This document shows, in pieces, positions 8,382 through 25,521 of a stretch of 64,000 nucleotides of DNA (within the stretch, counting starts at the first letter, position 1; every line of letters begins with the position of its first letter). This stretch comes from a virus. The notes below the pieces were generated by a model. The model was not told where the DNA came from, did no database searches, and was given only the letters and a program-made list of their open reading frames with translations. Position numbers and translations under genes: made by a program. The stretch lies in IMG/VR virus record IMGVR_UViG_3300009788_000087; one strand, written 5' to 3'.

Positions 8382-8505
8382 TCCTTCTCTTCCTCGACAT
8401 GCTCAGGCTCAACAAGTGGCAGTCGTAGTTCACGTTGGTGTTCGGCTTCACGTTGGCGTCTAAGCTTTTCGAGTTCCTCCATAATTGGAAGGATGTTTGG
8501 TGTTG

Positions 8506-8802: not shown

Positions 8803-9019
8803 CGATTTCTAATCTTTCTTTTATTTCTTCGAGAGTATACCAATATTCCATCTTGCTTTGTGCCATACCAACACAGATACTCCAAACTACATCAAATGAT
8901 TCATTCGACTTAATCCAGAAACTAATAGATGCGAATGGAACAGGAACATAATATCTCATGCGCCATAGTTTTACGTACCACGATTGGTTCTGATACCTGT
9001 CTTCTAGATCACTGGACAT
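8792..9019 (-). CDS. hypothetical protein
   Basis: 75-aa ORF coupled to both neighbours. Confidence 0.6.
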   Translation of the reverse strand: MSSDLEDRYQNQSWYVKLWRMRYYVPVPFASISFWIKSNESFDVVWSICVGMAQSKMEYWYTLEEIKERLEIDGY

Positions 9020-9538
9020 CTATGACACGCATCGTGATGAATGATCTAGGATACACTCGTACGACACCATCCCACTCGAAGGTAATCCAGCTGTACCGTG
9101 CTCATCGACAGGAGTAGATAGCTGTAATGTATCATTCGTCAAGGGCACAAGAGTACCATCACATGTGAGTGTGGGTTCAGTCTGGCTAATATAAATCGTG
9201 TGATCCCATTGTGGTGCTGTGTTCGGAGTGCTCACGGTCGGAGCTGTTCCCCACCAATATTGTGGATAAGACGGAGGATAGACTGGCCAAGTCTGTTGTG
9301 GCCATGCATGTGGCTGCGTACGCTCATGGTTAGTGAGAGCGTCCTGAATCATGCGAGTGACACTCTCCTCGTTTAGAATCCGCTTACCAGTCTTGCTCGA
9401 CTCATTCTTCTTGTCGCCACTGGGCTTCTCGAGTTGAGCCAGTTCCTCAGCTGTGCCTTCAAATTCAATGACAGTGCCGTCAGGCTGTGTTATCTTCTTC
9501 TTCATTATCTGTAATCTCCATCTTCCATTGTGAACCAC
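9020..9538 (-). CDS. hypothetical protein with Pro/Trp/Tyr-rich low-complexity region
   Basis: WPQQTWPVYPPSYPQYWW; true start likely MKKKITQ. Confidence 0.6.
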   Translation of the reverse strand: MVHNGRWRLQIMKKKITQPDGTVIEFEGTAEELAQLEKPSGDKKNESSKTGKRILNEESVTRMIQDALTNHERTQPHAWPQQTWPVYPPSYPQYWWGTAPTVSTPNTAPQWDHTIYISQTEPTLTCDGTLVPLTNDTLQLSTPVDEHGTAGLPSSGMVSYECILDHSSRCVS

Positions 9539-10016
9539 GACCGAAATCTTTAAGATCCACGCCGTCTATATAGATATCATTCTGACATATAACTTCTACA
9601 GAATTATTCATCAGGAGCTCGATGCCTTCTGTATTCCTGTATAGTTCCGTGTACACGACTTGTTCAATTCCAGCATTTATGATTCGCTTAGAACACATCT
9701 TGCAGGGTGATGTCGTGGTATACAAGCGTTTAAATGAAGGATCATTGAAGTCTAACTTGATGATAGCATTCTCTTCCGCGTGCAAGCATCCACATTTTCC
9801 TGGTTCTTTCGAATCACAACCGTGTGGCCCGCCCTTGTAATTTCCATTGTAGCCGATGGCAAGAACACGATTGTAGTCCCACGATGTGATGACACATCCA
9901 ACTGAGGCTCGCAAACACATACTTCTCTTACTGAGAATATACGCGAATGTCAGATATACGTCAGCCCAGCGAGGACGTGAGACAATCGTTGAGCTCTCCT
10001 CGTATACGTAGCTCAC
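9480..10016 (-). CDS. dCMP deaminase (cytidine/deoxycytidylate deaminase family)
   Basis: S.C.R..VG, GYNG, HAEEN and PCKMC zinc motifs. Confidence 0.93.
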   Translation of the reverse strand: MSYVYEESSTIVSRPRWADVYLTFAYILSKRSMCLRASVGCVITSWDYNRVLAIGYNGNYKGGPHGCDSKEPGKCGCLHAEENAIIKLDFNDPSFKRLYTTTSPCKMCSKRIINAGIEQVVYTELYRNTEGIELLMNNSVEVICQNDIYIDGVDLKDFGRGSQWKMEITDNEEEDNTA

Positions 10017-10351
10017 ACTATCGTGAATACATCTTGATTAGATGTCAGTGCTACAACCACAGCGACAGTGCTACCACGATCGATGGGGATTGAGGCAGCT
10101 AAACACTTCACGTGTGCTTCAACCTCTTGTCCTGGAAGAACGAGTGTTGCTTTGTTGACTAGCTCTAACCCCTGACTGCGTGCATAGTCGCACTCTAACA
10201 ATAATACTGGTACGTTAAAGGTAACACCAAGCGGAACACGTTTAACTTCATCTTCTGCAAGATTAAAATCAAGTGGTGCGCCCAACCTAAGAACTGGTAG
10301 TTCTCCTTTTGGTGTTGTTCCATCGCCTAATTGACATTCTACTATAGCCAT
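10013..10351 (-). CDS. degenerate trimeric dUTPase-like protein
   Basis: Residual VPLG and I.RG..VA patterns; catalytic motifs not recognisable. Confidence 0.4.
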   Translation of the reverse strand: MAIVECQLGDGTTPKGELPVLRLGAPLDFNLAEDEVKRVPLGVTFNVPVLLLECDYARSQGLELVNKATLVLPGQEVEAHVKCLAASIPIDRGSTVAVVVALTSNQDVFTIV

Positions 10352-10362
10352 AATCTTTCCCT

Positions 10363-11490
10363 TTATCTATTCACTACGTTTTCAATCTTATCCACGAAAT
10401 TGGATACATCCATAAATCTTAGCTTCTCTATGTTCTTTGACCTGATGTCATCACGTTCTTTTACACTGATAGTTGCGAGGTTTTCAACGATGAAACACAG
10501 CTCATTAGGATCATCAGCTATGAACTCCACATAGTCTTCGATACCTAAGTGTGGTTTCAGGCCGACAGGTATCGTACCAAATAACAGCGCTTCCCATGGT
10601 CGAGGAGTAATGAACCCGCTCTCAAGGTATGACTGCTTACCAAGCAATGGACACGCAGCTGCAGTACCATACACACGTCTGAAATCTGATATCGTTATAC
10701 GTTCGTTATACAAGACATACGGCCATTTCAATCTGCATTCAGTAAGGTTCGGTTCGCGTGTCCAGTTGCCCCAAAACTCTACTTCAAACCTAAATGCCTC
10801 GCTGACAGGTGCTATCCACTTATCGATGACATCATCTCTTTCGTACCTTGATCCAATGTAAACGAGCTTTCTACTCTTACTAACGGGGAGTGTTGGGAAC
10901 TGGTATAGATCATCTACTACGATTGGCGGCTCCACTCTTGTTCTATAAAATCCGTAGTCCAACGGTTTGACTGACGTCTCAAAGATTGCATCGGGTGCCC
11001 ACTTCACCTCATCCTCTAGCGTTAGTTTATGATCTAGATCCCACAGTATAATCTTGGTGCTCTTACCTTTGAAGTATTCAAGTATCTGCGTCTGTCTATC
11101 AAGGTCTGACTGATAGCCCACATCATTAATATCTATGTCAATGTTCCTACCTGGAATTGGGAAGCGCCATTCAATGAGAAGCACGTCAAGTTCGGGTAGT
11201 TCATCCAATTCAGTCAATGAAATGTCTGCTGTTGTTAACGTCTTGAACGATCTACGCCATGCATTATATCGTTTTTCAGTAGAGAATGAAGAGAATGCAT
11301 TATGAAACTTACCACTCACATATTCAAAGTCACGATCACGTTGAAGTAAATACGTCTCCCATCCTCGCTTCTGTGCTTCATGAAGAATGGACCATGAGTA
11401 CGCTGCATTACCATCAGGGGTGGAAACTTCCTTGCCGAACTCGAATTTACGATCAGCGATGAATCCCCAGTATGCGTAACCTAATCTCAC
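10363..11490 (-). CDS. GT-B glycosyltransferase resembling T4 DNA beta-glucosyltransferase
   Basis: C-terminal LVYIGS...VEFWGN...LLGKQSYLESGFITPRPWEAL parallels BGT VIYGGS...IEFFGN...IIGDKNYNDNFITLRVWETM (BGT recalled from memory). Confidence 0.75.
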   Translation of the reverse strand: MRLGYAYWGFIADRKFEFGKEVSTPDGNAAYSWSILHEAQKRGWETYLLQRDRDFEYVSGKFHNAFSSFSTEKRYNAWRRSFKTLTTADISLTELDELPELDVLLIEWRFPIPGRNIDIDINDVGYQSDLDRQTQILEYFKGKSTKIILWDLDHKLTLEDEVKWAPDAIFETSVKPLDYGFYRTRVEPPIVVDDLYQFPTLPVSKSRKLVYIGSRYERDDVIDKWIAPVSEAFRFEVEFWGNWTREPNLTECRLKWPYVLYNERITISDFRRVYGTAAACPLLGKQSYLESGFITPRPWEALLFGTIPVGLKPHLGIEDYVEFIADDPNELCFIVENLATISVKERDDIRSKNIEKLRFMDVSNFVDKIENVVNR

Positions 11491-11759
11491 TTAGTTTGCT
11501 TGTGGGGATATGATGGAGAAGATGGGCGCCCACTTGGGTGAATGTCATATTCGATACTGCCATGTTTACTCGGGTGATATGCATCAGAAGCATTCGCTTG
11601 AGTTGCATATGGTATTAGCTTCTTAAATCTTTCAAGTTGTGTAACTTTAATTATAAGCTCGTTAATCTGTGCTTCACGTGTCTTACTTGGAACAACAGGA
11701 AGTAACCAAATCGAGAACCTAAAGAACTTTATCGATAGCCATTTTCTAAATCTTCTCAT
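11487..11759 (-). CDS. small hypothetical protein
   Basis: 90-aa ORF overlapping both neighbours by 4 nt. Confidence 0.55.
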   Translation of the reverse strand: MRRFRKWLSIKFFRFSIWLLPVVPSKTREAQINELIIKVTQLERFKKLIPYATQANASDAYHPSKHGSIEYDIHPSGRPSSPSYPHKQTK

Positions 11760-12301
11760 AACTCTACCTTTACACCGCTATCTGAATTTAGACTGCGTAT
11801 TAGGTTAATCTTTTCCGTGAGTTGCGGCAACTGTCGTTCAATGTCATCATCGTAGTCATCAACAAAGATCTTAATAACATGACAATTCGTCTGATGATAG
11901 AATCTCGTATATCTATTATGTAGTGCTTCTAATTTGTGTGATTCTACGAGCTCATCATTTACTACAGAATAATCATGACGCAGACACATTACGACAATAG
12001 CACCCATCTCGCTCCACTCACTATCAATTCGATTCAGTGGTTCAGAAAGTGTTGAGCGTCCATACACGTCTGAATACACGATCTCTGATATGTAGCATCT
12101 ATCTGACACAAACGCAGTGTCTGTCTGTCTCACAAACTCAGGTAACAGTATATCAAATGGAATAGAGCTTGTAAAACAATCATTGATCCAGTTTGATTTT
12201 TCAGTTGTTACCTTGAAATATGGGATCCCATAGTGATTAGAGAGAGCGTGGGAAATATGAGTTTTGCCGCATCCGTCTGGACCTTCTACAAAGATGATCA
12301 T
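11756..12301 (-). CDS. dNMP kinase (thymidylate-kinase-like P-loop)
   Basis: MIIFVEGPDGCGKT, SDR motif; ATG at 12301 overlaps upstream TGA. Confidence 0.85.
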   Translation of the reverse strand: MIIFVEGPDGCGKTHISHALSNHYGIPYFKVTTEKSNWINDCFTSSIPFDILLPEFVRQTDTAFVSDRCYISEIVYSDVYGRSTLSEPLNRIDSEWSEMGAIVVMCLRHDYSVVNDELVESHKLEALHNRYTRFYHQTNCHVIKIFVDDYDDDIERQLPQLTEKINLIRSLNSDSGVKVEL

Positions 12302-12996
12302 GGTTTTCTTACACACCAATAATCTGAGGGTGCTTGCCCTTCTTCGTTCGACCATCTTTCGTGCTCTATTGGAAGATCGTGTAGAGGACTATAAAACATA
12401 TCACCTACTGCAGCCATCACACCTTTCCAATATTCGCAGTAATCATCACCGAACATAATGCCACCAGCACGAAGTAGTGGCCAGTATGCTTCGAGATCTG
12501 CTAAGACATCTTCATACTCATGGCTACCATCAATGTAGATGAGGTCTGCTTGCACGTCTTTCTTTCGCAATAGACGAGCAGCATTTGTTGATGTCTGTGG
12601 AAATGGTGTGATTCGACCTTGGTTCCCAGTTATAATTACATTTGCAAGAAACTGATAGTATACTTGTGGATAACCATTACACAACTCGAGAGACTTGTAT
12701 CTCTTCTCGTCCTTGTGGTCCTCCCAAAATTCTGTCGCACCAAGCCATGTATCAACACATGTAATCTCAGTCTTACCTCTTAACTCTGGATCTGCGCCGC
12801 ATATATCTGCCATCGTGATCGCAGACTTACCTTTCCATGTACCAACCTCAATGATAAGTTCAGGTTTTACTTCATCGATCTTCTTCTTGAAATATTCATA
12901 ATGTCCGCCCCAACCTTGAGCATCGAATGAATATGCTACTAAAGGAAAATCCTTGTAGATGTCATGGTCGTAAAGAATATCATAGATTCTACTCAC
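12298..12996 (-). CDS. class I SAM-dependent methyltransferase (Methyltransf_24-like)
   Basis: IEVGTWKGKSA, VDTW, YIDGSHEYEDV..D, GGIMFGDDY; probable GTG start at 12996. Confidence 0.88.
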   Translation of the reverse strand: MSRIYDILYDHDIYKDFPLVAYSFDAQGWGGHYEYFKKKIDEVKPELIIEVGTWKGKSAITMADICGADPELRGKTEITCVDTWLGATEFWEDHKDEKRYKSLELCNGYPQVYYQFLANVIITGNQGRITPFPQTSTNAARLLRKKDVQADLIYIDGSHEYEDVLADLEAYWPLLRAGGIMFGDDYCEYWKGVMAAVGDMFYSPLHDLPIEHERWSNEEGQAPSDYWCVRKP

Positions 12997-14077
12997 TGCC
13001 AACCCCTTTGAATAATCCTGCCCAGATCTGCATGGCTTTGCCGAGCTTCTTGAAGTAGTCCGTATATTCGGGGAATTCATCATACTTGGTGATGTGTTTT
13101 CCGAGATGCATGTATATCGTATTAGCTTCTATATAACCTTCAACTATTCCAGGATGATCGAATGAGTCTACATACTCCCACAGCTTCTCATTCACCTCGA
13201 GACCATTTGCTTCCTTCTTTAGGTTGGTGAATGGATTGGATGCACGCTCGTGCCTGATGTATGGAATCCCGGTGCTGACAGTTTTACCTAGAATATCTGC
13301 GCACTTCTTCATAAAGATGCCGCACCATATGTCACCGAAGCGATCGAATGGAAGTTTTTTCAAAGTTGTATATGGTTTCAATTCAAAGTCTTCTGGCGTA
13401 ACTTTAGGTTTCAACTGTTGCCCCATCAGTAAGTGATACATCAGTACCGTGTACTCTGCTTTCCACATCACGTTCATCCCACACATGGGGAAGTATGAAC
13501 CATGGGGCACGATCTTATTGTCATAGGCAAACTTCTCTTCTACGGGATTGACGAGCTGAGTGGGCGCATCATAGTCTATTACATTCGTCCACAGCCCGTG
13601 ATTTACAATCGTATCGTTCCGTTCACCAAGATTGTAGAACGGTATTCCACGAGGTTTCACACAGTCGAGAGTATTGAACCATCTTGTGCGGCCACCATTG
13701 AGATATTTCTTGTGTTGCTCGACGAATCCTTTGCCATCATATATGTGATCCATCGGATAGCAGTCATCATCGAGTGTCATGATGTACCTATAGCCACATG
13801 AATGCGCATACCAATATGCAAAACTTCTGACAGTATCAGATCTTCGTGGGATTATCCACTCATCCTCACCAAGTCCATCCCGGATATTTTTCCAACACAA
13901 ATGTACGATATTATTTTTGGAACCATCAAAAACTTTGAATGTCTTTGTTGGATTGTCTTCCATAACAAACAGGTCTACATGATCGAATAGACCGATATCA
14001 TTCCACCTCTTATAAAAATCAGTGAAGCAATTCTCACGAATCGTAGGAACTATTAATGCGATTTCTTTAGCGATCAT
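12989..14077 (-). CDS. RGP / UDP-arabinopyranose mutase homolog (GT75)
   Basis: TLDDDC, RGIPF, HGLWTNVIDYDAPTQLVNP, FPMCGMN, TGIPYIRHERASNPFTNLKKE match conserved plant RGP/UAM blocks. Confidence 0.88.
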   Translation of the reverse strand: MIAKEIALIVPTIRENCFTDFYKRWNDIGLFDHVDLFVMEDNPTKTFKVFDGSKNNIVHLCWKNIRDGLGEDEWIIPRRSDTVRSFAYWYAHSCGYRYIMTLDDDCYPMDHIYDGKGFVEQHKKYLNGGRTRWFNTLDCVKPRGIPFYNLGERNDTIVNHGLWTNVIDYDAPTQLVNPVEEKFAYDNKIVPHGSYFPMCGMNVMWKAEYTVLMYHLLMGQQLKPKVTPEDFELKPYTTLKKLPFDRFGDIWCGIFMKKCADILGKTVSTGIPYIRHERASNPFTNLKKEANGLEVNEKLWEYVDSFDHPGIVEGYIEANTIYMHLGKHITKYDEFPEYTDYFKKLGKAMQIWAGLFKGVGSE

Positions 14078-14080
14078 CTT

Positions 14081-17000
14081 TTATCCCTCTACCTCATCCA
14101 CATTAATTAATGCACCATCTGCACTGTATTCACTGTGTGCCCATCCCGGTTTGCCAAGCACGAGATTCTGTGGTTCATCCAGCTTTCTATTGAAGGTGGC
14201 AAAGAATACATTACCCTTCACTGCTTTCTTCGCAATGTACCGCCAGATTGTTGCGAAGCACGGTGCGTCAAACTCAGTCCCATTTCTGTCACCGAACTTA
14301 ATGAATGCCATCATGCCACCACGAGACTGAGCACGTTCACGGACATCTTTAATGATTACAGGGATGACACCGATTTTATCCTCTGACTTCACAAACTCTT
14401 CAAAGTCTTGAACCATGCCTTCCTTAGCAAGTATCTCTATCTTCTTATCCCTATCGAATAGTTTGAATGGTGTACCAATAAGATTGAATCCAAGCAACTC
14501 ATTCTCATACTCTACAAGCTTAGCGATTGGATGCGGTTCACACTCAAGAGCAAAGTACTGCTCTTCAAATTCAGCTTTCTTTTTCTTGACGCGAAGCTTT
14601 GGATTGTCCTGCCACAATTCATACCTCAACTCAGTCAGCGCCATGTTCTCTTCCAATGAAGTAAACGCACCGACCTTGATAAGGGGAACCGTTGCAGTCT
14701 TACCACCGCCTGTCTTATAGAGATAATCACGTAGACTCTCATACGGTTGGCTCTTCTCAATCTTCTTAACAGCTGCGTCACCGACACCCAACGCAGAACC
14801 AAGTGCTAACCTGATCGCAACACCCTCAATCTTGTGAAAAGCACTCGATTTATTGATATCTACCGGCAGAATCTTAAATCCCTGACGCTTGATGTCGTCC
14901 ACATAAGATTGAAGATCATCTGCTTTACCATGAATTAGAAGTGCTGTAAAGAATTCAAGTGGATAGTATGTTCGAAGGAATGCAGTCTGCATGGAGATCA
15001 TAGCATAGCACTTGGCATGACTGGCATTGAAACCATATCCACCAAAGTGCTCGAACATATTCCATAGTTCAAGACCCTGCTTCTCAGTCAATCCATTCTC
15101 TACACATCCCTTAACGAATGGTTCTCTTAGCTCCTTCTTCTCGTTCTGAAGGAAGTCATCCTTCTTTGACTTGTCTTTCTTTAGGAACAGCTTCCTAAGT
15201 CTGTTGACATGTGTCATCGGTAGCTTACCGAGGTGGTGACCGATGTTTAACATCTGTTCCTGATATACAAGACAACCGTAAGTCTCCTTCATGATCTCTT
15301 CCATCATGGGATGCACATATTTGATCTTGTCAGGGTTGTGTTTGTTCTCAGCGTATAGCTTATGCATGCCTGAACCAAGTGGTCCCGGTCTATAGATCGC
15401 ACCGATCGCTGACACGTCATTGAAGCAGTCAGGTTTAATCCGTTGAGCTACTTTCCTGATACCTTTGTTTGTAAACTGAAATATGCCCGTGAAATTCCCG
15501 TCGATGAAGACTGTCTTGATTACTTTCTGATCATCGATGTCCATGTACGTTGGATCGACCATCTTATATGCTTCATCATAATTCATGTCATGTCGTTTAG
15601 ATATTAGCCTAAGTGCACGGTCGATGACCGATAGAGTTGAAAGCGACAGTATGTCAAACTTGACAAATCCCATCGCTGAACATTGCTTGTTAACAATCCC
15701 GTCAGTGAACGATGTTTGTAGAACTCCTTTATTCTGGAATAGAGCCATCTCTCGAGGTAGGTTGTCTCCGATAACGAGGCCACAAGCATGACGTCCCACG
15801 TGACGATTCTTCCCATACAACTTAGTGATATTTTCACCGATGACGGGATACTTCTCGACGAGAGCTCTGTAAGTAGGAGAGACTCTAACGACATCTTCGT
15901 ACTTGATGTCGATGGTGGACTTGTCTTGGCCTTTACCTCGCAAGACTCGAAGCTCGCCCTCGATTTTCTTGTTTGCCTTGTTGATCTCTCGATGGTCGAT
16001 ATCATAGACACGTGCTATATCCTTGAGTAGTCCCTTAATTTGGAATGTACCGTATGTGCTGATGCAAGCGACGTTGTCGTGACCGAACATCTCACGGAGC
16101 ATTTCGCGCGCTTGCTCGCTATCTTGAAAATCAGTATCAATGTCAGGAAGCTCGACACGGGAAGGGTTAATAAATCGCTCGAATAGAAGATTATGTTTAA
16201 TGGGATCGAGATCTGTGAGACCACTGAGGTAACAAACAAGAGAACCAGCAGCACTACCACGTCCCGGTCCCACGAGCATTTGCTCTTTGGCTTTGGTAAT
16301 GATGTCACGCATAATGAGGAAGTATGAGGCAAAACCCTTCTCCTTAATCAGCTTCATTTCATGCATGAAGCGTTTACGATACTGCTCATCATCAGTGAGG
16401 TTCAGCTCTTTCATCCTCGCAATGGCCACCTCACCCAGTTTCTTGAATGGATGCTCGAACCTACACGTTGGAAGCCTCTCTTCCGTATTAGGTTCATAGT
16501 CTTCAACCATCGAGTCAATGAGCAGTGTATTTTCAAATGCCTCACGAACAAGATTTGCATCTGCATCGCCACCAAAGCGCTCGAATGTTTCCCACATCTC
16601 TTGAGGTGACTTAATGTAGAGCTGCTTGATATTAAAATCCCAGTCATCTCCTCTTGTCGACATCGTCTTCTGACTGCGAAGCATGTAAAGAATTTCCTGC
16701 GCAGCCCACTCGTCTGAGTTCACGTAGTGTGAATCGCATGTTACATTGAGCGGGATTCCAGTCTCATGATGCACTTTGATAATAGACTCGTTGATAAATC
16801 GCTGAGAATCAGACTCGTTGAACTGCAGCTCAAGGAAGAATCTGTCACCGAAGATCTCCTTATATTCTTCAGCTTCACGAACGACATCACTCCACTCAGC
16901 GTCACCGTTCTTCCATGCCCAGCACCTATTAGCAATGACTCCGCCCATGCACGCTGAAGACGCGATGACTCCGTTACCGAAATCATTCATCATCCTCTTA

Positions 17001-17464
17001 TCGATCCTCGGCTTCATGTACATGCCCTCCTTGTGCGCAAGGTGTGTGAGGTTGTACAAGTTATCGAGACCCGCCTGATTCTGTGCTATGAGAACAAGGT
17101 GACCTTTCCTATAGAGAGACTTCTGTCTACTCTTCATATCGAGATTGGTAGCATCTTCATCTACCGCCTCAGACTTCTTTAGCTTCTTCAGTGACTCCTT
17201 GTCGGACTCTAACTTTGCTTTCTCTTCTGACCACTTCTTTAGATCATCAATCGCATATGCTTCAACACCGTAGATTGTGCGGACTCCATGTTTCTTTCCA
17301 TGCAGATAAAAATCTGCAATACCATGCATATGCCCATGATCAGTTAGTGCAATAGAGCAAAGACCTTTCTCCTTCGCTTTAAGGACCATGTCTTCAGGTC
17401 GAGACAGACCATCCATGAAACTGAAGTGGGAGTGATTGTGCAGACTAGCAAAATCTTTTATCAT
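14081..17464 (-). CDS. dnaE: DNA polymerase III alpha subunit
   Basis: PHP HNHSHFSFMDG, GPGRGSAAGSLV, PDIDTDF, KFDILSL, VYQEQ, YGFNASHA, C-terminal OB fold; no intein. Confidence 0.97.
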   Translation of the reverse strand: MIKDFASLHNHSHFSFMDGLSRPEDMVLKAKEKGLCSIALTDHGHMHGIADFYLHGKKHGVRTIYGVEAYAIDDLKKWSEEKAKLESDKESLKKLKKSEAVDEDATNLDMKSRQKSLYRKGHLVLIAQNQAGLDNLYNLTHLAHKEGMYMKPRIDKRMMNDFGNGVIASSACMGGVIANRCWAWKNGDAEWSDVVREAEEYKEIFGDRFFLELQFNESDSQRFINESIIKVHHETGIPLNVTCDSHYVNSDEWAAQEILYMLRSQKTMSTRGDDWDFNIKQLYIKSPQEMWETFERFGGDADANLVREAFENTLLIDSMVEDYEPNTEERLPTCRFEHPFKKLGEVAIARMKELNLTDDEQYRKRFMHEMKLIKEKGFASYFLIMRDIITKAKEQMLVGPGRGSAAGSLVCYLSGLTDLDPIKHNLLFERFINPSRVELPDIDTDFQDSEQAREMLREMFGHDNVACISTYGTFQIKGLLKDIARVYDIDHREINKANKKIEGELRVLRGKGQDKSTIDIKYEDVVRVSPTYRALVEKYPVIGENITKLYGKNRHVGRHACGLVIGDNLPREMALFQNKGVLQTSFTDGIVNKQCSAMGFVKFDILSLSTLSVIDRALRLISKRHDMNYDEAYKMVDPTYMDIDDQKVIKTVFIDGNFTGIFQFTNKGIRKVAQRIKPDCFNDVSAIGAIYRPGPLGSGMHKLYAENKHNPDKIKYVHPMMEEIMKETYGCLVYQEQMLNIGHHLGKLPMTHVNRLRKLFLKKDKSKKDDFLQNEKKELREPFVKGCVENGLTEKQGLELWNMFEHFGGYGFNASHAKCYAMISMQTAFLRTYYPLEFFTALLIHGKADDLQSYVDDIKRQGFKILPVDINKSSAFHKIEGVAIRLALGSALGVGDAAVKKIEKSQPYESLRDYLYKTGGGKTATVPLIKVGAFTSLEENMALTELRYELWQDNPKLRVKKKKAEFEEQYFALECEPHPIAKLVEYENELLGFNLIGTPFKLFDRDKKIEILAKEGMVQDFEEFVKSEDKIGVIPVIIKDVRERAQSRGGMMAFIKFGDRNGTEFDAPCFATIWRYIAKKAVKGNVFFATFNRKLDEPQNLVLGKPGWAHSEYSADGALINVDEVEG

Positions 17465-17474
17465 ATTCCGTATT

Positions 17475-17786
17475 CTAACTGATCGATTTCTTAGAAGACT
17501 TACTAATAGGTATTTCAGCGAGATATCCGCTTAAGACACTATCTCTAAGTCGTTCGTCAACGTAGGCTCTTTTTGCTTCTTCAAATGAACAACGACTCCA
17601 TCGTTCATTTCCAAGAGAATCTTTACTAAGAGACTCTGTAACGACATAAATCTCATATTGCTTGCCATTAATCCCTACATTTAGAAGATGATAAGGATCG
17701 TCTGCTCTCTCGGATGCAATGAAACGATAGTCCTTACATGATAACACAACTCTCGGTAGTTTTAGATTTTTAGTAACCACTTTCAA
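17475..17786 (-). CDS. hypothetical protein
   Basis: 103-aa ORF inside the coupled operon. Confidence 0.6.
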   Translation of the reverse strand: MKVVTKNLKLPRVVLSCKDYRFIASERADDPYHLLNVGINGKQYEIYVVTESLSKDSLGNERWSRCSFEEAKRAYVDERLRDSVLSGYLAEIPISKSSKKSIS

Positions 17787-18150
17787 ACCTTTCTTTTACA
17801 ACTCGGTTCTTACGACAGAACTCATTGTACATCTCTTGTGGTGAGATGCCGGACAGTATACAGATCTCCATGAAATACGCCAATGTATCTCCTAGCTCTT
17901 CAACATAGTGTGAACGATCGAATTCCCTATCATCAGTCACTTTATGTATCTTGTTCTTCAGAGTATACGTTGCCTCCCACAGTTCATTGTGACAGTCACT
18001 AACGATCTCCTTGATCATACGTTGACCCTGTTTAGTTGTCAAATCAATCGGCCAAGGAGGTAGGACATCACGTTCTTCCAATATCTGCATGTTCCCCTCT
18101 TGGCGATAGAACATGTCTTTCCATAAGTCAGTTGAAAGTGACATCGTCAC
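17770..18150 (-). CDS. all-alpha dNTP pyrophosphohydrolase (MazG / dimeric dUTPase / dCTPase-like)
   Basis: ELWEA...EELGD acidic helices and C-terminal KN......R...GY. Confidence 0.8.
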   Translation of the reverse strand: MTMSLSTDLWKDMFYRQEGNMQILEERDVLPPWPIDLTTKQGQRMIKEIVSDCHNELWEATYTLKNKIHKVTDDREFDRSHYVEELGDTLAYFMEICILSGISPQEMYNEFCRKNRVVKERFESGY

Positions 18151-18550
18151 TCCTTACCTTATAAGTCTGCGGACCGGACGCATCAGTTATCAGGCACTTA
18201 CCAACGTTAGACACGAGATCCCACGCGCATGATGGGTGCCAATAACTTTCAAGCAAACCCTGCACCTTTGATCGCATAAAATCATTCTCACTGAATAAGA
18301 TGATTGTCCCTACATTTATACAACATAGATGCCCGATGAGTTCGTCGGTCAACTCGACACCCCTTACAAAGATCTTATCGTAGACCTTCGAGTAGTTGAG
18401 ATCAGATACGTCTTCTACATGATCCAATTCAGCTACATACTTCTTCATGAACGACATTGGATCTGCACCAAGGAACAGCATCCTATCAGAAGACCTAACT
18501 CCTGTCACGTCAGAGACGTCATCACATTTGCTATACGGATTCTTTGTCAC
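18128..18550 (-). CDS. hypothetical protein
   Basis: 140-aa ORF overlapping both neighbours. Confidence 0.6.
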   Translation of the reverse strand: MTKNPYSKCDDVSDVTGVRSSDRMLFLGADPMSFMKKYVAELDHVEDVSDLNYSKVYDKIFVRGVELTDELIGHLCCINVGTIILFSENDFMRSKVQGLLESYWHPSCAWDLVSNVGKCLITDASGPQTYKVRSDDVTFN

Positions 18551-19511
18551 GTTTTTCCTTATGCTCCACTAGTTGTTGAAACATCCACAATAGAGTTTCA
18601 TTCTGTACTGGCAATGATTTTGGTAGTAGTGCACCAGTTCGAAGGCATTCCTCTGCCGTTATTAGAATATCTAGCTCCTCAAGATTACTCAGCGGTGCCA
18701 TCGGTTCAGTGAATTTACCTCGTTTTGGACTAGAATCTTTTATCCACTTCGCATACCTTTGCCTATGTTCATTCAACATCTTCTCTGATAATTCGTAGTG
18801 TCGATCATAGACATGGAGTGAACCAGTTGTGTGATAATACAGACCAAGCTCTAAGTCTGGATAGTGTTTCTTTAGCTCTAATAACATGCACTCTTGAAAG
18901 AGAGTGAACGAGAATAAATCATACGTCAGTCCCCAGTGTACATCATTTGAGCGCATATTGACATGGAGATGTAGCTTATTCTCTCGAATAAAGAATTGAA
19001 GAGAAAGCGTGCACGGTACATCTTTGGATCCTTCAGTATCTGCATTAAACTGATGTACTGGTTGGTGGATTTGCAACACTGCTCTTCTGCTATCTTTGTC
19101 AGATTTAAGCGTGTTAATACAGATTTTCCACTGGTCAACTTTTGCTGCTTTATCTGGTCCTGTTGGTGCCATCCCATGAATGATATGACCATACGCAGAT
19201 ACTACAGTCTTTCCGTCATCTGAAAACTGCGGCATCCTCTTGTTGTAGTACGTCATCTCCTCAAGAGAGTTCGAGCCGCGCCAATACCAAAGGAACTCAC
19301 CGACTGCAAACGCATATTTAGACTTACGGACTTTAGATGATAGTAGTCTGTTACGAGGATCACTGAGGATCAAGCGAGGTACTAAGACTTCTCTTACTTC
19401 AGTGCCACGTGGTTTGCAAACATAGTCAGGGAAAGACATCTCCATGAGGACATCGTACATCAACTCATCGAAGCTATCCTTGACAAACCTATATCCCACC
19501 ATTGGCTTCAT
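18531..19511 (-). CDS. thymidylate synthase homolog, predicted dCMP-modifying (hydroxymethylase-type)
   Basis: GEFLW, DSRRA, catalytic PCT, MRSNDVHWGLTYD with Asp at the Asn177 specificity position, LHVY. Confidence 0.85.
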   Translation of the reverse strand: MKPMVGYRFVKDSFDELMYDVLMEMSFPDYVCKPRGTEVREVLVPRLILSDPRNRLLSSKVRKSKYAFAVGEFLWYWRGSNSLEEMTYYNKRMPQFSDDGKTVVSAYGHIIHGMAPTGPDKAAKVDQWKICINTLKSDKDSRRAVLQIHQPVHQFNADTEGSKDVPCTLSLQFFIRENKLHLHVNMRSNDVHWGLTYDLFSFTLFQECMLLELKKHYPDLELGLYYHTTGSLHVYDRHYELSEKMLNEHRQRYAKWIKDSSPKRGKFTEPMAPLSNLEELDILITAEECLRTGALLPKSLPVQNETLLWMFQQLVEHKEKRDKESV

Positions 19512-20416
19512 GGGTGTATGACCTCAAGCAATTCTTCGATAGTCTTCCTATCAATCGGGTGTCCTGCGGCTCTAGCATGTCCGCCGCCTCCAAACTGTTT
19601 CGCTATCTCTGTTGCGTCCACTTTTTCTGTGCTCCTAATGCTCGCGACACCACCAAAGCTATTCAACTTAATTCCAATCGCCACATCACAATCATGTCGT
19701 TCCATGACACGCTGTAGAAGTTGTGATTGGTGATCGCTACAGAAAACATAGGCACACTTCACACCATCTAACTCTTTAAAGAATGGTTTCTCTGAGTGTT
19801 TCTCAATGTATTTATCTCTCTTGGATTCGAGGACCTTCACGACATTCAAGTCTGCGTCTGTCATTAGTGGATAACATTTCCTAATCCTGTATGTCATCAT
19901 GTCCACGAACTTTTCTTGACCGAAGAAGTTAGCAAAAAGACTGAGCTGATCAGATTTTGGATCCTTTCGTATCCACATGTCACGATCATTGATCATTTCA
20001 GCGAAGTTCCAAACTGCACCCCAATGATCATCAGGTTCACCATTTTCAAACAGATAGTCGTAGAGTAAGAATGTGCCACACTTCTCCATGTTGATGTGAC
20101 ACCAATCTCTGTCTTTAAGATCGAGTGCAGTCTTGTGGTGATCGATGATTGTTATGTCACCGTGGTACAGCTTCTCAAATAGATCAGCTGTCTCAGTATC
20201 ACATGCAACATCAGCTATGATTACACGATCATGTGTCTCAAATACGTCTTGGTTCTTCTTATAGAAATCTCTAACACCATTTCCCGCAGGAACGTAGTGG
20301 ATATTCTCTTTCTTGCCGCCAGCGAGGAGGAACACGACTGCACAACCTGAACCGTCGCTACAACCTTTATGAGTTATTAGTACTGAATTCTTTAGTTCAT
20401 CAGGTTTATATTTCAC
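19508..20416 (-). CDS. DHH/DHHA1 phosphoesterase
   Basis: H...SDG, ADV, DHH, GGGGHARAAG motifs. Confidence 0.9.
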   Translation of the reverse strand: MKYKPDELKNSVLITHKGCSDGSGCAVVFLLAGGKKENIHYVPAGNGVRDFYKKNQDVFETHDRVIIADVACDTETADLFEKLYHGDITIIDHHKTALDLKDRDWCHINMEKCGTFLLYDYLFENGEPDDHWGAVWNFAEMINDRDMWIRKDPKSDQLSLFANFFGQEKFVDMMTYRIRKCYPLMTDADLNVVKVLESKRDKYIEKHSEKPFFKELDGVKCAYVFCSDHQSQLLQRVMERHDCDVAIGIKLNSFGGVASIRSTEKVDATEIAKQFGGGGHARAAGHPIDRKTIEELLEVIHP

Positions 20417-22164
20417 AAATCACACGTGCCATTCTTGCATGAGTCGATTGCAGTGGCTTCTTCCTTTGCAGTCTGTGCATGCTCTACAGCCTTTTCAAGT
20501 GGGATGGGAGTGAGTGGCTGGTCCTCGCGACTCCCATCTGGATATACTGTCATGCCTTTTAATTCAGGCAGAAACTCCATATAAAGATCTGATAACTCCT
20601 CAGCAGATGTATCTGACATTAAGTTGATTGTCTTGCTAACCGCGTTGTCGACGTGTTGTTGGCATGCACGCTGCATTTCAAGATGATCCCGAATTGAGAG
20701 ATCATGCGCACCTTGGAAGTGTGAGACGTCCCTGCCCTCATCGAGGAATCTCTTAAGGAGAGGATGGACAACCACCTCAGTGTCATATTGATTTCCCTCG
20801 TCGACTCTGAAGCGTCTCTCGTATGCAGGGGCAAACATCGGCTCAATGCCAGACGTGACTCCACATACCATAGAAGTTGTGCCTGTCGGTGCGATCGTCA
20901 AGAGTGCAGCATTTCTAATTCCATGTTCTTTAATCTTCCTTCTAATCGTCGGTTTAAGAGTCTTAACAAAATTGGACTTCAAGAATAAGTCTGCTTTAAA
21001 AACTGGAAAACAACCCTTCTCTTTTGCCAACTCCACTGATGCTTCGTATGCATAATTCTTTATAGTCTTCATGAGCTTATCAACAAGCTCCAAACCCTCA
21101 GGACTATTATAACACAAGTCATTCATTAATAACACATCATGTAGTCCCATAATGCCAAGCCCTATCCTTCTAACTTTCTTACATGTTTCAGCAATTTCCG
21201 ATAGTGGATAGTTGTTTACGCTAAGGACGTTGTCAAGAAACCGGACGGCTTTAGATACTGTGTATTTTAAGAGTTTCCAATCTATTCCACCCGTGTCTTT
21301 TACAAAATTGGGTAAAACAAGTGATCCCAAATCACATGCGCCGTACTTAGAAAGCCAGAGCTCGCCGCAAGGATTCGTACTAATGAGTGGTTTCCAGTAC
21401 CAGATGTTGCTCATCCTATTTGCATACCATCCATTAAGAATGCCGGGCTCACCACTCTTCAATGCATTCTTAATGATACGATCCCACAGTTCACGTGCTG
21501 GGATAACGCCGATAGCTTTATCACGATGTTTAAACTCAAATGTGCCACCGTCTCGAACGAGCTTAAAGAAGTCTTCCGGATTCTGGTCAAACACGACTGA
21601 CACATTTGCATTCGTTAATTGATTAAGATCAAGTTTCTTATCAAGAAACTCAAGTAGATCACCGTGTCTAAGATTAAGACAGAGCATAAGCGCTGTTCGA
21701 CGGCCACCACCTGCTTTGATTACATTACCTGCTGCATCGACGATTTCCATAAGAGAAACTGCACCAGTCGCTTTACCACCTGATCCATTAATATCTGTGC
21801 CACGTGGTCTAATAGGCGAGCAGTTCATTCCTACGCCGCCGCCAACGCCTGAGATCACAATCATGTCACTGACAGTCTTTCCCCAGCCTTCGCGACTATC
21901 TTCTGTGGGTATTACAAAACAATTTAACAACTGTCCTTTAGCTCGACCAGATCCTGCCCAAATTCTACCGCCAGGCATGAATAAGTTCTTACTAAGAATA
22001 TCATATGAGTCATCTCTAAATTTTAGAATGTCATCACCCTTCTCAGCCATTGAGACATGAGTGGCAACTCGCATGCATGCATCATTCCATGACTCATCAT
22101 CATGAATCGTATATCTTAAGTTGAATATTTCTTTGGCAAGACCAGTAGGTTGGTAACATTCCAT
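20413..22164 (-). CDS. nrdJ: ribonucleotide reductase, probably class II (B12-dependent), no ATP cone
   Basis: PGGR, LLNCF, GGGVG, TNPCGE, RRIGLG, TIAPTGT, C-terminal Cys pair; no beta subunit nearby. Confidence 0.85.
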   Translation of the reverse strand: MECYQPTGLAKEIFNLRYTIHDDESWNDACMRVATHVSMAEKGDDILKFRDDSYDILSKNLFMPGGRIWAGSGRAKGQLLNCFVIPTEDSREGWGKTVSDMIVISGVGGGVGMNCSPIRPRGTDINGSGGKATGAVSLMEIVDAAGNVIKAGGGRRTALMLCLNLRHGDLLEFLDKKLDLNQLTNANVSVVFDQNPEDFFKLVRDGGTFEFKHRDKAIGVIPARELWDRIIKNALKSGEPGILNGWYANRMSNIWYWKPLISTNPCGELWLSKYGACDLGSLVLPNFVKDTGGIDWKLLKYTVSKAVRFLDNVLSVNNYPLSEIAETCKKVRRIGLGIMGLHDVLLMNDLCYNSPEGLELVDKLMKTIKNYAYEASVELAKEKGCFPVFKADLFLKSNFVKTLKPTIRRKIKEHGIRNAALLTIAPTGTTSMVCGVTSGIEPMFAPAYERRFRVDEGNQYDTEVVVHPLLKRFLDEGRDVSHFQGAHDLSIRDHLEMQRACQQHVDNAVSKTINLMSDTSAEELSDLYMEFLPELKGMTVYPDGSREDQPLTPIPLEKAVEHAQTAKEEATAIDSCKNGTCDL

Positions 22165-22188
22165 CTTCTCATCCTCCTTAACGGACTG

Positions 22189-23553
22189 TTACTTAGTATG
22201 TCCTGTTAACTGCTCGAATCTTCCTCTCAACATGCTTGCAACTTGATCTTGCGATGGAGGAAATGCTTCTTCAGGTAGTTCATGCTCAGCCAGAATCCTG
22301 ACCTTTACCGTCGCTGGATCCATTATGAATGGGAATACCATGCCATCAGGACCAAGCCTTGATTTCGCAACAAACAATCTACCAGTATTGTGTCTCTTAT
22401 CCTCTAACTTTCTGCTTACAGTCATGATGAGATCACAGACTGTAGCTTTTGCATACGATTCAGCAATCGCATCGAGTGTAACGATCTCTAAATTGAGACC
22501 ACTGCGATTCGTCTGGTCTGCAGTAACTACAACAATGTTTAATTCCTGTGCAAGACCACGAAGCTCCTCGTATACACCTTCAAGCTCATGTCTCTTTTCA
22601 CCGTAACTCTTACTTGGCTTAAGCAGATCCGCATAATCAATGACAAGCACATCAGGAGCAAAATTATGGAGTGTCTTCAGTCTATTCAGATAACTCCTAA
22701 TCGTCTGAACAGATGCCATCTTCGTTGGGAACTCCTTGATGAAGAGCCTGCCTTTGACAACTGTTCTGGCTTCTTTCTCAACGCGCTGCATCTCGTCAGG
22801 TACGTCATTGATCTTAACACCAGAGAAATACGCGTCATGTCGTAGTCCGACTTTGTAGTCAGCAATCTCCATAGAAACGTAGCATGCGTTGTAACCCTCA
22901 ATGATCGCGCCGGCTGTTACGTTACACAAGAAGTGCGTCTTACCAGCACCAGTAGGTGCGATGAACGTGCTAAGTGTCTTACGCTCCCAGCCTCCACCGA
23001 GAATACTGTTAAGAACAGGCCACGGCGTAGCAAGAGGTACTCGTACACTCTTCTCTGATCTATCCTTAAATCCATCCATGTACTCGTGACCAACGTCACG
23101 TGTAGTTCCTCTACTTGCAGCGTCTGTTATTGTCTTCCACACGCTATCAAACGTACCGGTCTCGATGTGTTCTAATGCTTTGTTAATCCCTTCCAACATC
23201 GCTTGACGTCTACAGAAATCAATTGACGTATCCTGAATGTAGCTCATGTCTCCATTCAAGGGTCTGTCTTTTACATTTTTTAAGAACAATCGAATCTGTG
23301 TTTGAATTACATCGCCAATATCATCATCTTTCTTGATGATGTCAAACAACACTTCATTAGATGGAAACGCGTTATACTTCTGTTTGTATCCAAATAGTAT
23401 GTTAACGATCTCACTAAGATGTTTGTTCTCCTTAAACATCTCAGGTTTAAGGATGTCACCTATCTGCTCAGCATAAAGGTGGTCCTGCATGAGAGCTTGG
23501 ACCACCTTCTCTTGATATCTTTGATCGCCAATTCCATGACGCTCTTCGCTCAT
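22189..23553 (-). CDS. replicative helicase, DnaB/T4 gp41-like
   Basis: APTGAGKT, SME, IDYADLL, QTNRSG, KSRLG. Confidence 0.92.
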   Translation of the reverse strand: MSEERHGIGDQRYQEKVVQALMQDHLYAEQIGDILKPEMFKENKHLSEIVNILFGYKQKYNAFPSNEVLFDIIKKDDDIGDVIQTQIRLFLKNVKDRPLNGDMSYIQDTSIDFCRRQAMLEGINKALEHIETGTFDSVWKTITDAASRGTTRDVGHEYMDGFKDRSEKSVRVPLATPWPVLNSILGGGWERKTLSTFIAPTGAGKTHFLCNVTAGAIIEGYNACYVSMEIADYKVGLRHDAYFSGVKINDVPDEMQRVEKEARTVVKGRLFIKEFPTKMASVQTIRSYLNRLKTLHNFAPDVLVIDYADLLKPSKSYGEKRHELEGVYEELRGLAQELNIVVVTADQTNRSGLNLEIVTLDAIAESYAKATVCDLIMTVSRKLEDKRHNTGRLFVAKSRLGPDGMVFPFIMDPATVKVRILAEHELPEEAFPPSQDQVASMLRGRFEQLTGHTK

Positions 23554-23562
23554 CGCATTACC

Positions 23563-24522
23563 TCAGCTTTTGCTTCTTGCACGAAAATATTGCTCCTTGA
23601 ACATGATAAAAAAATCAGTAGGTTTAAGCTGCAGTTGGTCTTTGAATAGCTGCAGCTTCATGTCCGTTGGTCTGTAGCTGTTTGTCGATTCATCTAATTT
23701 ATATCTTATCGACTTCGCTGCCATCGGATCCATCAGTGGACTTGATAGTTGCATCAAGCGCACATTATTCATAACTATCTCCCGATCTGCAAGGATGCGG
23801 TTGTATTTTGAATTCGCGTCTTTATTCTCCTCGGCGTGATCGAAGATATCATTTGTACATGCAAATCGCTCGGACAGAAATGGGAACAATTTCGTGACAG
23901 ATTTCGGCCCGATGCCTCTGATGCCATCGATATTATCACTCTTGTCTCCCATGAGTGCTTTCATTAGAATATAGTTCTCAGGCAGGATATCGAGTGTTTC
24001 TCTCAGATCACTGGAAGAGAAATATTTCTTCTTGGTAGGTACATAGATTACAGTTTTAGTATCCAACAACTGATAGAAATCCTTGTCACTGGACACGATT
24101 ACTTTCTGGTCATTCTTATCCAATAAGAAGCCCCAAAGATATGCAATCACGTCATCAGCTTCGACTCCCTTAATACGTATACTCGTCAGTGGCAAGAACT
24201 CGAGGTACTTATCAAGCATCTCAAGCTGTCTACGAAAGCTCTCCATCTGCTGATTGGGATCTTCAAAGCTATACTGTCTGTTTACTTTCGGTTTCCTGCC
24301 AGCTTTGTAATCCTTGAAGATTGAACGTCTCTTCAGTGAACCACCTTCTCCGTCCCACACGACGATGATGTGTGTTGGTCTCTGTTCACGTACAAGCTTG
24401 TTCAACCCGATGAGGAAACCTATTGTCCCACCGACATGCTCACCATTCATATCCATTGTAGGGTTAACAGTGAAAGAACGGATGAAAAAATTCAGTCCGT
24501 CTATTAATAGATAACGTCTCAC
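23563..24522 (-). CDS. 5'-3' exonuclease / flap endonuclease (Pol I N-terminal, T4 RNase H-like)
   Basis: IDGLN, WDG, EADD, SSDKDFYQL, GDKSDNIDGIRGIG. Confidence 0.93.
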   Translation of the reverse strand: MRRYLLIDGLNFFIRSFTVNPTMDMNGEHVGGTIGFLIGLNKLVREQRPTHIIVVWDGEGGSLKRRSIFKDYKAGRKPKVNRQYSFEDPNQQMESFRRQLEMLDKYLEFLPLTSIRIKGVEADDVIAYLWGFLLDKNDQKVIVSSDKDFYQLLDTKTVIYVPTKKKYFSSSDLRETLDILPENYILMKALMGDKSDNIDGIRGIGPKSVTKLFPFLSERFACTNDIFDHAEENKDANSKYNRILADREIVMNNVRLMQLSSPLMDPMAAKSIRYKLDESTNSYRPTDMKLQLFKDQLQLKPTDFFIMFKEQYFRARSKS

Positions 24523-24957: not shown

Positions 24958-25521
24958 TTATCCTGTTAGTTCAAGATCACACTCGACCTCATTGCCCCAT
25001 GAATCCCAACCGTCTGTTTTCTCTCGTGCAAACAGCTCGATGCGCGGTACATAGCTGACAATCTCTATCATCTCTCGCATCTCATCAGGTTTCTGCGAAT
25101 GTCTCTGACGTGGTGCTATGATCGCAGTTCTACCTTGCAGACGACCACCTTCTTCATTTCTTCGATAGGGTAGTCGACCCATGACACCGAACAGACATGA
25201 TTCAGACGCTCCTCTGAAATACTGTCCTAGCCCACACTGCAGTTTCTTGTTAACCTTGACCCAGTCTATCTTCGTAACATACCTGAATCCCCAAGACTGC
25301 ATAATCCTAAGACCGTGTGGCAAGAAGTTATTCGTCACCCACATGTAAAGATGAGAACCTTGTTCATCAGCTATATCACGAACAGGGAGTGCCTCGATCT
25401 CAGCAAGAGACATGACTGGATAGTGTCTATCAGAACCCCAACTTCTTCCTGTCTTATCTTTACCACCAACTTCTTTCCACGGAGGATCAACTAGTATTGT
25501 TCTATATCTCTGATCAGTCAT
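24958..25521 (-). CDS. MT-A70 family N6-adenine methyltransferase
   Basis: ILVDPPW, Y..M...EI..LPV, LYMWVTN, WGF.Y, HSQKP, RIELFAR..GWD.WGNE. Confidence 0.92.
   Translation of the reverse strand: MTDQRYRTILVDPPWKEVGGKDKTGRSWGSDRHYPVMSLAEIEALPVRDIADEQGSHLYMWVTNNFLPHGLRIMQSWGFRYVTKIDWVKVNKKLQCGLGQYFRGASESCLFGVMGRLPYRRNEEGGRLQGRTAIIAPRQRHSQKPDEMREMIEIVSYVPRIELFAREKTDGWDSWGNEVECDLELTG

Follow-up and report, generated by a model that had tools for sequence, protein, structure and literature searches.

A candidate deoxycytidylate 5-hydroxymethyltransferase of long, MilA-like form in an uncultured subsurface phage

A thymidylate synthase homolog among phage replication genes

IMG/VR virus record IMGVR_UViG_3300009788_000087 comes from an uncultured subsurface phage with a genome of ∼196 kb, of which one stretch of 64 kb (hereafter the window) was analyzed. 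The window carries a gene for a protein with the fold of thymidylate synthase (TS), whose start overlaps by 4 nucleotides (nt) the stop of an upstream DHH-family gene. An earlier note on this DNA, made from the sequence alone, had described the protein as a TS homolog specific for deoxycytidylate (dCMP) and most likely a dCMP hydroxymethylase, a proposal that every signature tested here supports. The open reading frame (ORF) and its two diagnostic motifs are as follows.

18531..19511, minus strand: TS-fold ORF, candidate dCMP hydroxymethylase (5-hydroxymethyl-dCMP [5hm-dCMP] synthase); 326 amino acids (aa), intact, ATG start
19011..19022, minus strand: D164-V-P-C167, the catalytic cysteine with an aspartate three residues upstream (codons read; alignments)
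18918..18953, minus strand: motif R187 S188 N189 D190 V H W G194 L T Y D198 (read directly and from alignments)

The ORF belongs to the TS superfamily by both sequence and fold. Pfam PF00303 (Thymidylat_synt) matches it with an E value of 1.2e-24 and 87.4 bits (cut-off, 24.3), four PHROG "thymidylate synthase" families match it (best E value, 1.6e-49), and it retains the invariant catalytic and binding columns of the family (C167, R142/R143/R187, E72, Y107, and H233/Y235). The PF00303 score, together with the 3964 homologs and the invariance of D198 described below, indicates that the match is not due to chance. An AlphaFold (AF2) model built from 55 family sequences has a predicted local distance difference test score (pLDDT) of 92.2 and a predicted template modeling score (pTM) of 0.91 and shows the TS alpha/beta fold. 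A Foldseek search with this model returned 396 PDB chains at an E value of ≤0.001, and all of those listed are TS-family enzymes.

The best structural matches are those of MilA, which align over the whole chain (318 columns; template modeling [TM] score, 0.79/0.80; 30% identity), while ThyA and the T4 deoxycytidylate hydroxymethylase (dCH) match the core only (TM score, ∼0.55 to 0.60). A C-terminal helical extension like that of MilA is present, and a ThyA-like C-terminal tail is not. The ranking by sequence is similar, with 114 bits for MilA (E value, 6e-32), 62 for Bacillus subtilis ThyA, 58 for T4 gp42, and 44 for the RB69-type enzyme of PDB entry 9iqu, which is near-identical to RB69 gp48. 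The TS homolog is thus a long-form, MilA-shaped enzyme, and its pocket, as set out below, is of the deoxy type.

Active-site residues point to deoxycytidylate hydroxymethylation

Residues were compared in MAFFT alignments with Escherichia coli ThyA, T4 gp42, SPO1 gp29, RB69 gp48, and the enzyme of phage Xp12 (the first 50 kb of the Xp12 record contain a single TS homolog, taken here as its dCMP methyltransferase). The segment RSNDVHWGLTYD, residues 187 to 198 of the TS homolog (nt 18953 to 18918, minus strand), ends in D198, which falls in the column of E. coli ThyA N177 (RSCDVFLGLPFN) and T4 gp42 D179 (RSNDVVFGFRND); a HMMER alignment to MilA places the same residue opposite MilA Asp186. The aspartate that the earlier note had read at the Asn177 position is therefore confirmed by two alignment methods. 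Threonine (T168) follows the catalytic C167, where ThyA has H147, and a Ser-x-Tyr pair is present as S105-A-Y107. At all 16 of the 16 positions compared, the TS homolog is identical to T4 gp42, and the other references differ as listed.

Query residues: E72, S105, Y107, R142, R143, D164, C167, T168, R187, S188, N189, D190, G194, D198, H233, Y235
The same residues in E. coli numbering: E58, S92, Y94, R126, R127, D143, C146, T147, R166, S167, N168, D169, G173, D177, H207, Y209
E. coli ThyA, differences from query: L143, H147, N177
Xp12 enzyme, differences from query: N143, P147
SPO1 gp29, differences from query: N147, N177
RB69 gp48, differences from query: E143, N169

In a careful alignment, RB69 gp48 carries a Glu at the E58 position, and this position was not used as a discriminator.

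Published work gives these positions a meaning. Asp at position 177 directs the enzyme to cytosine and Asn to uracil, and Ser167 with Arg126′ of the pocket goes with deoxyribose, where Ala with Lys goes with ribose (PMC5175136). From the ternary complex of T4 dCH, an acidic residue (Asp or Glu) at the third position ahead of the catalytic Cys, together with Ser/Thr-x-Tyr, was proposed as the signature of hydroxymethylation (PMC6400193), and the L143 position bears on the choice between methyl and hydroxymethyl products (PMC13326640). Positions 177 and 147 are those most strongly associated with modified-cytosine contigs (PMC8670742). D169N marks a branch of TS homologs (RB69 gp48, DLP3 gp80, and others) that makes 5-hydroxy-dCMP with flavin and O2 (PMC13326640, NAR 2026). 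The TS homolog has D198 for cytosine, S188 and R142 for deoxyribose, and D164-V-P-C167 with S105-A-Y107 for hydroxymethylation, and its residues therefore read as deoxy, cytosine, and hydroxymethyl, rather than methyl, hydroxy, ribo, or uracil. On this sequence-based reading, the ORF very probably encodes a folate-dependent dCMP 5-hydroxymethyltransferase.

Two uracil-directed functions were considered and rejected. A canonical ThyA would have Asn177, Leu143, and His147, where the TS homolog has Asp198, Asp164, and Thr168, and the NCBIfam cut-offs are missed: the best ThyA equivalog model, NF002497, scores 64.8 bits where its cut-off is 327, and all eight ThyA models stay far below their cut-offs. 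A dUMP hydroxymethylase was rejected on the Asp, not Asn, at position 177.

The closest solved protein in both sequence and fold, C-terminal extension included, is MilA, so the enzyme could in principle be a MilA/BcmA-like CMP hydroxymethylase that supplies 5hm-CMP for a small molecule or RNA and not for DNA. The long, C-terminal-helical architecture of MilA/BcmA is indeed present, but the ribose-type pair Ala176 and Lys133 of MilA is replaced by Ser188 and Arg142, as in deoxy-specific enzymes, and the MilA A176S/K133R double mutant switches from CMP to dCMP (PMC5175136). The gene also lies inside a DNA replication and deoxynucleotide (dNTP) operon. We consider the probability of a CMP enzyme to be close to negligible.

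Asp177 alone would also fit a dCMP C5-methyltransferase of the Xp12 type, which forms 5-methyl-dCMP by hydride transfer from folate; the Xp12 enzyme has D177, and N177D mutants of ThyA make 5-methyl-dCMP (PMC8670742). Position 143, however, carries the Asp of the hydroxymethylase signature, where Xp12 has the non-acidic Asn and ThyA has Leu, and the C terminus is the MilA-like helical extension instead of the ThyA-like tail. The Xp12 gene adjoins a dihydrofolate reductase (DHFR) gene, and none was seen in the 64-kb window, a provisional point that covers the window only; the glycosyltransferase candidates nearby would need a hydroxyl acceptor. These features make a methylase extremely unlikely.

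An enzyme that makes 5-hydroxy-dCMP shares the superfamily fold, Asp at 177, and an acidic residue at 143 (PMC13326640), but the D169N mark of that class is absent: the query (Asp190), the 120 close homologs, and the 150 cluster representatives all carry Asp at this position. The RB69-type structures 9iqc and 9iqu are also the weakest functional class in comparison with the query (44 bits, against 114 for MilA). The earlier note had held that sequence alone leaves room for a methylase or hydroxylase. That caveat was too cautious, since published diagnostic residues separate the classes (PMC6400193, PMC13326640), here through D164 and the retained D190.

Conservation and phylogeny of the long-form clade

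The residue pattern is shared by a large and mostly uncultured family. A collection clustered at 90% identity contains 3964 homologs of the TS homolog, the best 120 of which are 46 to 66% identical to it and all metagenomic; a 50%-identity library contains 7969 representatives at an E value of ≤1e-3 and 393 at ≤1e-30. The compared signature positions, D198 among them, are invariant in the closest homologs (120/120), and Asp occupies position 177 in all 150 of the best 50%-identity representatives. The full R126-D143-C146-T147-S167-D169-D177 pattern is found in 132 of these 150, and one of them has a MilA-like K…A combination.

In a quick maximum likelihood tree, the query falls in a clade of 16 rows (Shimodaira-Hasegawa-like approximate likelihood ratio test [SH-aLRT] support, 96) that is apart from T4 gp42, from RB69 gp48, and from the group of SPO1 gp29 and Bacillus phage G gp319. 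Of the comparisons that the earlier note had asked for, the tree covers gp42, from which the query clade is separate; MilA is not among its reference sequences. Long reference branches make the deep placement unsure.

Among cultured phages, the nearest homologs share 31 to 40% identity with the query, and the cytosine-hydroxymethyl signature is present in the three that were checked (Bacillus phage G gp319, Agathobaculum phage AB434P2 gene 7, and RsoM2USA gene 10). The AB434P2 gene (L015:3838-4500) has Asp at 177, D143, T147, and S167 and is annotated as "deoxyuridylate hydroxymethyltransferase"; these residues predict dCMP as its substrate, so that the annotation is probably wrong. In Bacillus phage G (gp313 to gp319; L014:1-4969), the genes next to gp319 are annotated as an alpha-glucosyltransferase, a thymidylate kinase, and a putative dCMP deaminase, and this module predicts, from gene content, glucosylated 5-hydroxymethylcytosine (hmC) in the DNA of a 498-kb phage.

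About 25 of the 150 representatives are 427 to 639 aa long. Pfam searches of six such forms identified a C-terminal thymidylate-kinase-like domain in three and an HNH insertion instead in one. The three (P0139, P0160, and P0177; ∼500 aa) are natural fusions of a cytosine-type TS homolog to the kinase-like domain, which suggests channeling of 5hm-dCMP to its kinase. In the fourth (P0211, 639 aa), an HNH_3 endonuclease domain splits the TS match into two separate stretches, an arrangement that resembles an intein or an inserted homing endonuclease.

Neighboring genes and a possible route to modified DNA

Every gene of the window is encoded by the minus strand, with close packing or overlap between neighbors. 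Around the TS homolog they run from ribonucleotide reductase (RNR) through the DHH gene, the TS homolog, a 140-aa protein, a MazG-like protein, a 103-aa ORF, DnaE, a GT75 homolog, a Methyltransf_24 protein, and a kinase to a 375-aa protein, with a dCMP deaminase further on.

20413..22164, minus strand: ribonucleotide reductase, barrel domain, head of the gene run (Pfam Ribonuc_red_lgC, E value 1.8e-102)
19508..20416, minus strand: DHH/DHHA1 phosphoesterase, directly upstream of the TS homolog (Pfam DHHA1, E value 6e-7; phrog_4771, E value 1.1e-40)
18128..18550, minus strand: conserved 140-aa protein, overlapping the TS homolog and MazG genes, methyltransferase-like predicted fold
17770..18150, minus strand: MazG-like all-alpha nucleoside triphosphate (NTP) pyrophosphohydrolase, candidate dCTPase (phrog_12184, E value 3.4e-15)
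14081..17464, minus strand: DnaE-type DNA polymerase III alpha (homologs annotated as DnaE-like polymerase III alpha; syntenic)
12989..14077, minus strand: GT75/reversibly-glycosylated-polypeptide (RGP) homolog (Pfam PF03214, E value 4.1e-39, full length)
12298..13083, minus strand: Methyltransf_24/CmcI-like S-adenosylmethionine (SAM) methyltransferase (Pfam PF13578, E value 1e-20)
11756..12355, minus strand: P-loop nucleoside monophosphate (NMP) kinase, thymidylate-kinase-like, candidate 5hm-dCMP kinase (phrog_761 "thymidylate kinase," E value 2.4e-13)
10363..11490, minus strand: 375-aa GT-B glycosyltransferase candidate, resembling T4 beta-glucosyltransferase (beta-gt)
9480..10016, minus strand: dCMP deaminase, dCMP to dUMP (Pfam dCMP_cyt_deam_1, E value 2.5e-17)

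This order is kept in IMG/VR relatives, whose TS homologs are 48 to 59% identical to the query, the best relative being at 59%. Only the Methyltransf_24 gene departs from it: the relatives L004 and L010 lack this gene, and among the loci compared it occurs in this phage alone. A promoter and terminator scan of positions 8500 to 24000 found nothing above shuffled expectation.

Several of these neighbors fit a T4-style pathway. The MazG-like protein has weak Pfam matches to dUTPase_2, MazG, and PRA-PH and is syntenic in all relatives; its C terminus aligns with the T4 gp56 dCTPase (pairwise E value, 5e-4), a weak match, but one in line with its assignment to PHROG 12184 and with a published finding that TS, PRA-PH, and dCMP deaminase occur together on modified contigs (PMC8670742). 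The NMP kinase has Pfam AAA_28 and dNK matches, and it aligns, although a separate protein in the window, with the C-terminal part of 22 long-form TS homologs (best E value, 1e-7); the kinase fusions thus provide Rosetta-stone evidence that the product of the TS homolog is handed to an NMP kinase. The DHH/DHHA1 gene is syntenic in all relatives and may encode a phosphoesterase that acts on oligonucleotides or nucleotides and so supplies the deoxynucleoside monophosphate (dNMP) pool.

Three genes may belong to a sugar modification. The 375-aa protein has Atlas features of 0.96 to 0.98 to the Glyco_trans_1_2 and T4-Gluco-transf clusters and moderate similarity to T4 beta-gt in hhalign (probability, 63%; E value, 7e-5; 135 columns); its gene is kept beside the kinase in L004 and L010, and by these similarities it is a probable DNA hmC glycosyltransferase. 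GT75/RGP proteins form a nucleotide-sugar pyranose-furanose mutase family, and the homolog here, also kept in L004 and L010, may supply the sugar donor. It is rare in phages, with a counterpart in 1 of 50,697 phage records (an uncultured 595-kb megaphage, LR756511; 38% identity). The third is the phage-specific Methyltransf_24 gene.

The sugar genes also bear on the hydroxylase reading, under which a flavin- and O2-dependent 5-hydroxy-dCMP synthase (RB69 gp48/DLP3 gp80/HY126 type) would yield 5-hydroxycytosine that is then glycosylated through an ether bond. A furanose-mutase homolog and a glycosyltransferase nearby speak for it, as known 5-hydroxycytosine systems carry furanose sugars; the candidate transferase, however, resembles T4 beta-gt, which acts on hmC, and with the residue evidence given above this reading is very unlikely.

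The 140-aa protein has no Pfam or PHROG family, its PDB profile matches are insignificant, and its Atlas features reach at best 0.90, to unnamed clusters. Only five homologs were found, and the gene is syntenic in L004 to L009; L010 has no BLAST match to it and yet keeps the TS homolog. Its AF2 model (pLDDT, 80) shows a minimal class-I methyltransferase-like Rossmann fold in which no glycine-rich SAM loop is evident, and all its Foldseek matches are SAM-methyltransferase-like and weak (TM score, 0.4 to 0.6), the best being the non-catalytic methyltransferase-like domain of anamorsin.

Such a partner, conserved and translationally overlapping between the TS homolog and MazG genes in most relatives, raises the alternative that the enzyme forms the exocyclic methylene intermediate and that another terminal step, perhaps with the 140-aa protein, leads to a non-hydroxymethyl substituent at C5. 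The methyltransferase-like predicted fold and the distance of the clade from characterized enzymes are compatible with this. Against it, none of the residues for water addition is missing or variable, the fold match of the partner is weak and at its best to a non-catalytic domain, and L010 retains the enzyme with no match to the partner. We judge this alternative improbable and retain the dCMP hydroxymethylase reading.

The phage itself belongs to a lineage without a cultured relative. A megablast search with 20 kb against phage records gave 0 matches, an exact 48-mer from the window had no match among metagenome contigs, and DnaE has no match above 33% identity among phage records. The sequencing runs listed with the window DNA are one DNA run (a subsurface metagenome, probably the source) and no RNA run. 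Elsewhere in the window, we observed a second DNA polymerase (a 495-aa protein with a family-A polymerase domain; 42720-44207, minus strand), a tubulin/FtsZ-family GTPase with a TubZ-like C-terminal domain (phage tubulin; 38331-39527, minus strand) among structural genes, an MT-A70 adenine methyltransferase (24958-25521, minus strand), an NT5C-type deoxyribonucleotide 5′-nucleotidase (4436-5086, minus strand), and a calcineurin-like phosphoesterase (6137-6892, minus strand). The RNR at 20413-22164 has a weak match to a B12-type insertion.

Thymidylate and folate supply

The earlier note had found a dCMP deaminase in the window and no canonical ThyA or ThyX, and both observations hold. The deaminase gene also matches the NCBIfam ComEB-like model (E value, 2.5e-19; below cut-off). 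A tblastn search with five TS-family references identified only the 18531-19511 locus, a six-frame tblastn search with the ThyX of a relative found no match in the window, and Pfam scans of the larger window ORFs found neither Thy1 (ThyX) nor DHFR. The suggestion of that note that dTMP comes from the host or another locus stands as well. The relative L010 (IMG/VR 3300031902_000003; a record of 75.8 kb) encodes a 209-aa ThyX (L017:1477-2106; E value, 3.5e-52) ∼13 kb from its TS homolog, with no counterpart in the window; a ThyX in the other 132 kb of the present genome is therefore plausible. The lack of DHFR in the window fits a reaction that releases tetrahydrofolate (THF), although it is not conclusive.

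Proposed pathway and its weighing

The analysis shows a fold, a set of conserved active-site residues, and a gene order; from these we infer an activity, a product, and a state of the phage DNA. By analogy with T4 gp42 and MilA, Cys167 would attack C6 of dCMP, Asp198 would read and protonate the N3/N4 edge of the cytosine, Glu72 and Asp190 would handle methylene-tetrahydrofolate, and the C5 proton would be removed by a water held by Ser105 and Tyr107. A second water, activated by Asp164, would then add to the exocyclic methylene to give 5hm-dCMP and THF, with no hydride transfer and no dihydrofolate formed. The adjacent MazG-like enzyme may convert dCTP to dCMP and so keep dCTP out of the DNA, while the P-loop kinase would phosphorylate 5hm-dCMP and a host nucleoside diphosphate kinase would complete 5hm-dCTP for incorporation by the DnaE replisome. 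The phage DnaE would have to accept the modified dCTP. Once the DNA is replicated, the beta-gt-like GT-B enzyme would probably attach a sugar to the hydroxymethyl group, drawing on a donor whose form is set by the GT75 mutase homolog. The deaminase would divert part of the dCMP to dUMP for dTMP, made by the host or by a ThyX encoded elsewhere in the genome.

Several points weigh against this interpretation. The residue rules derive from few characterized enzymes, and the exclusion of hydroxylation by a retained D169 has been tested only through known hydroxymethylases. The nearest characterized enzymes (MilA, SPO1 gp29, and T4 gp42) are 26 to 33% identical to the query, whose clade stands apart in the tree, and we found in the literature no biochemical work on a deoxycytidylate member of the long-form MilA-shaped clade. 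The similarities behind the kinase, MazG, and glycosyltransferase assignments are weak or remote, the interpretation gives no role to the conserved 140-aa methyltransferase-like protein, and the nearby furanose-mutase homolog recalls the arabinosyl-5-hydroxycytosine systems of RB69. The DHFR negative covers 64 kb of a 196-kb genome.

Substitution of 5-hydroxymethylcytosine for cytosine is a classic phage escape from restriction and CRISPR cleavage. The gene places this predicted chemistry in an uncultured subsurface lineage, and within a large MilA-shaped clade that comprises 393 clusters (50% identity) at an E value of ≤1e-30. The kind of enzyme is an expected one, and its product is already predicted by published residue rules; MetaGPA reports Asp at 177 for most of the TS homologs on modified-cytosine contigs. 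The neighbors are more unusual than the enzyme, with a GT75 mutase homolog, a beta-gt-like glycosyltransferase, and a sugar-type methyltransferase, and the gene anchors the reading of these sugar-modification genes. It is possible, although we would not call it probable, that 5-hydroxymethyldeoxycytidine is here the anchor of an undescribed hypermodification, with a furanose sugar made by the GT75 homolog, its transfer by the GT-B enzyme, and CmcI-like O-methylation in this phage only; the long-form clade would then be an entry to widespread phage genomes with glycosylated hmC. The enzyme also offers a clean test case for the D143/D169/D177/S167/R126 rules on a distant branch and a possible new 5hm-dCMP synthase for enzymatic work.

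Comparison with known systems

The best match in sequence and fold, MilA, is the CMP 5-hydroxymethylase of Streptomyces rimofaciens (PDB 5b6d, 5b6e, 5jnh, and 5jp9). It shares with the query the Asp at the 177-equivalent position, the Asp three residues before the catalytic Cys, and the C-terminal helical extension, and it differs in the Ala176 and Lys133 that underlie its CMP preference, where the query has Ser188 and Arg142. MilA serves bacterial antibiotic biosynthesis, whereas the query lies in a phage replication operon.

The closest homologs from cultured phages, the SPO1 dUMP hydroxymethylase gp29 and Bacillus phage G gp319 (31 to 37% identity), resemble the query in being long forms with a C-terminal extension and an Asp three residues before the Cys. 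SPO1 gp29 acts on uracil, in keeping with its Asn at both 177 and 147, positions occupied by Asp and Thr in the query; phage G gp319 has, by its residues, the same cytosine signature as the query. The 5-hydroxy-dCMP synthases RB69 gp48, DLP3 gp80, and HY126 (PDB 9iqc and 9iqu) have the TS fold, Asp177, an acidic residue at 143, and Thr147 in common with the query and differ in D169N and in the use of flavin and O2 (PMC13326640), as the query keeps Asp190. The Xp12 enzyme is alike in Asp177 and in its deoxycytidylate substrate and differs in Asn143, Pro147, and its DHFR neighbor, where the query has Asp, Thr, and no DHFR seen in the window.

Synthesis of 5hm-dCMP is the first step of cytosine replacement in the DNA of T4-type phages. 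T4 gp42 (PDB 1b5e and 6a9a) agrees with the query at 16/16 active-site positions, and the logic of the T4 pathway is mirrored here, with dCTPase-like, kinase-like, beta-gt-like, and dCMP deaminase partners each present. The two enzymes are nevertheless only 26% identical globally (33% locally) and lie on separate, distant branches; gp42 has 246 aa, no C-terminal extension, and a fold TM score of 0.55, and T4 replicates with a gp43-type polymerase whereas the phage of the query uses DnaE. The Asp-type phage TS homolog is thus an enzyme kind known from T4, and the gene described here is a new, distant, and long MilA-like member of it.

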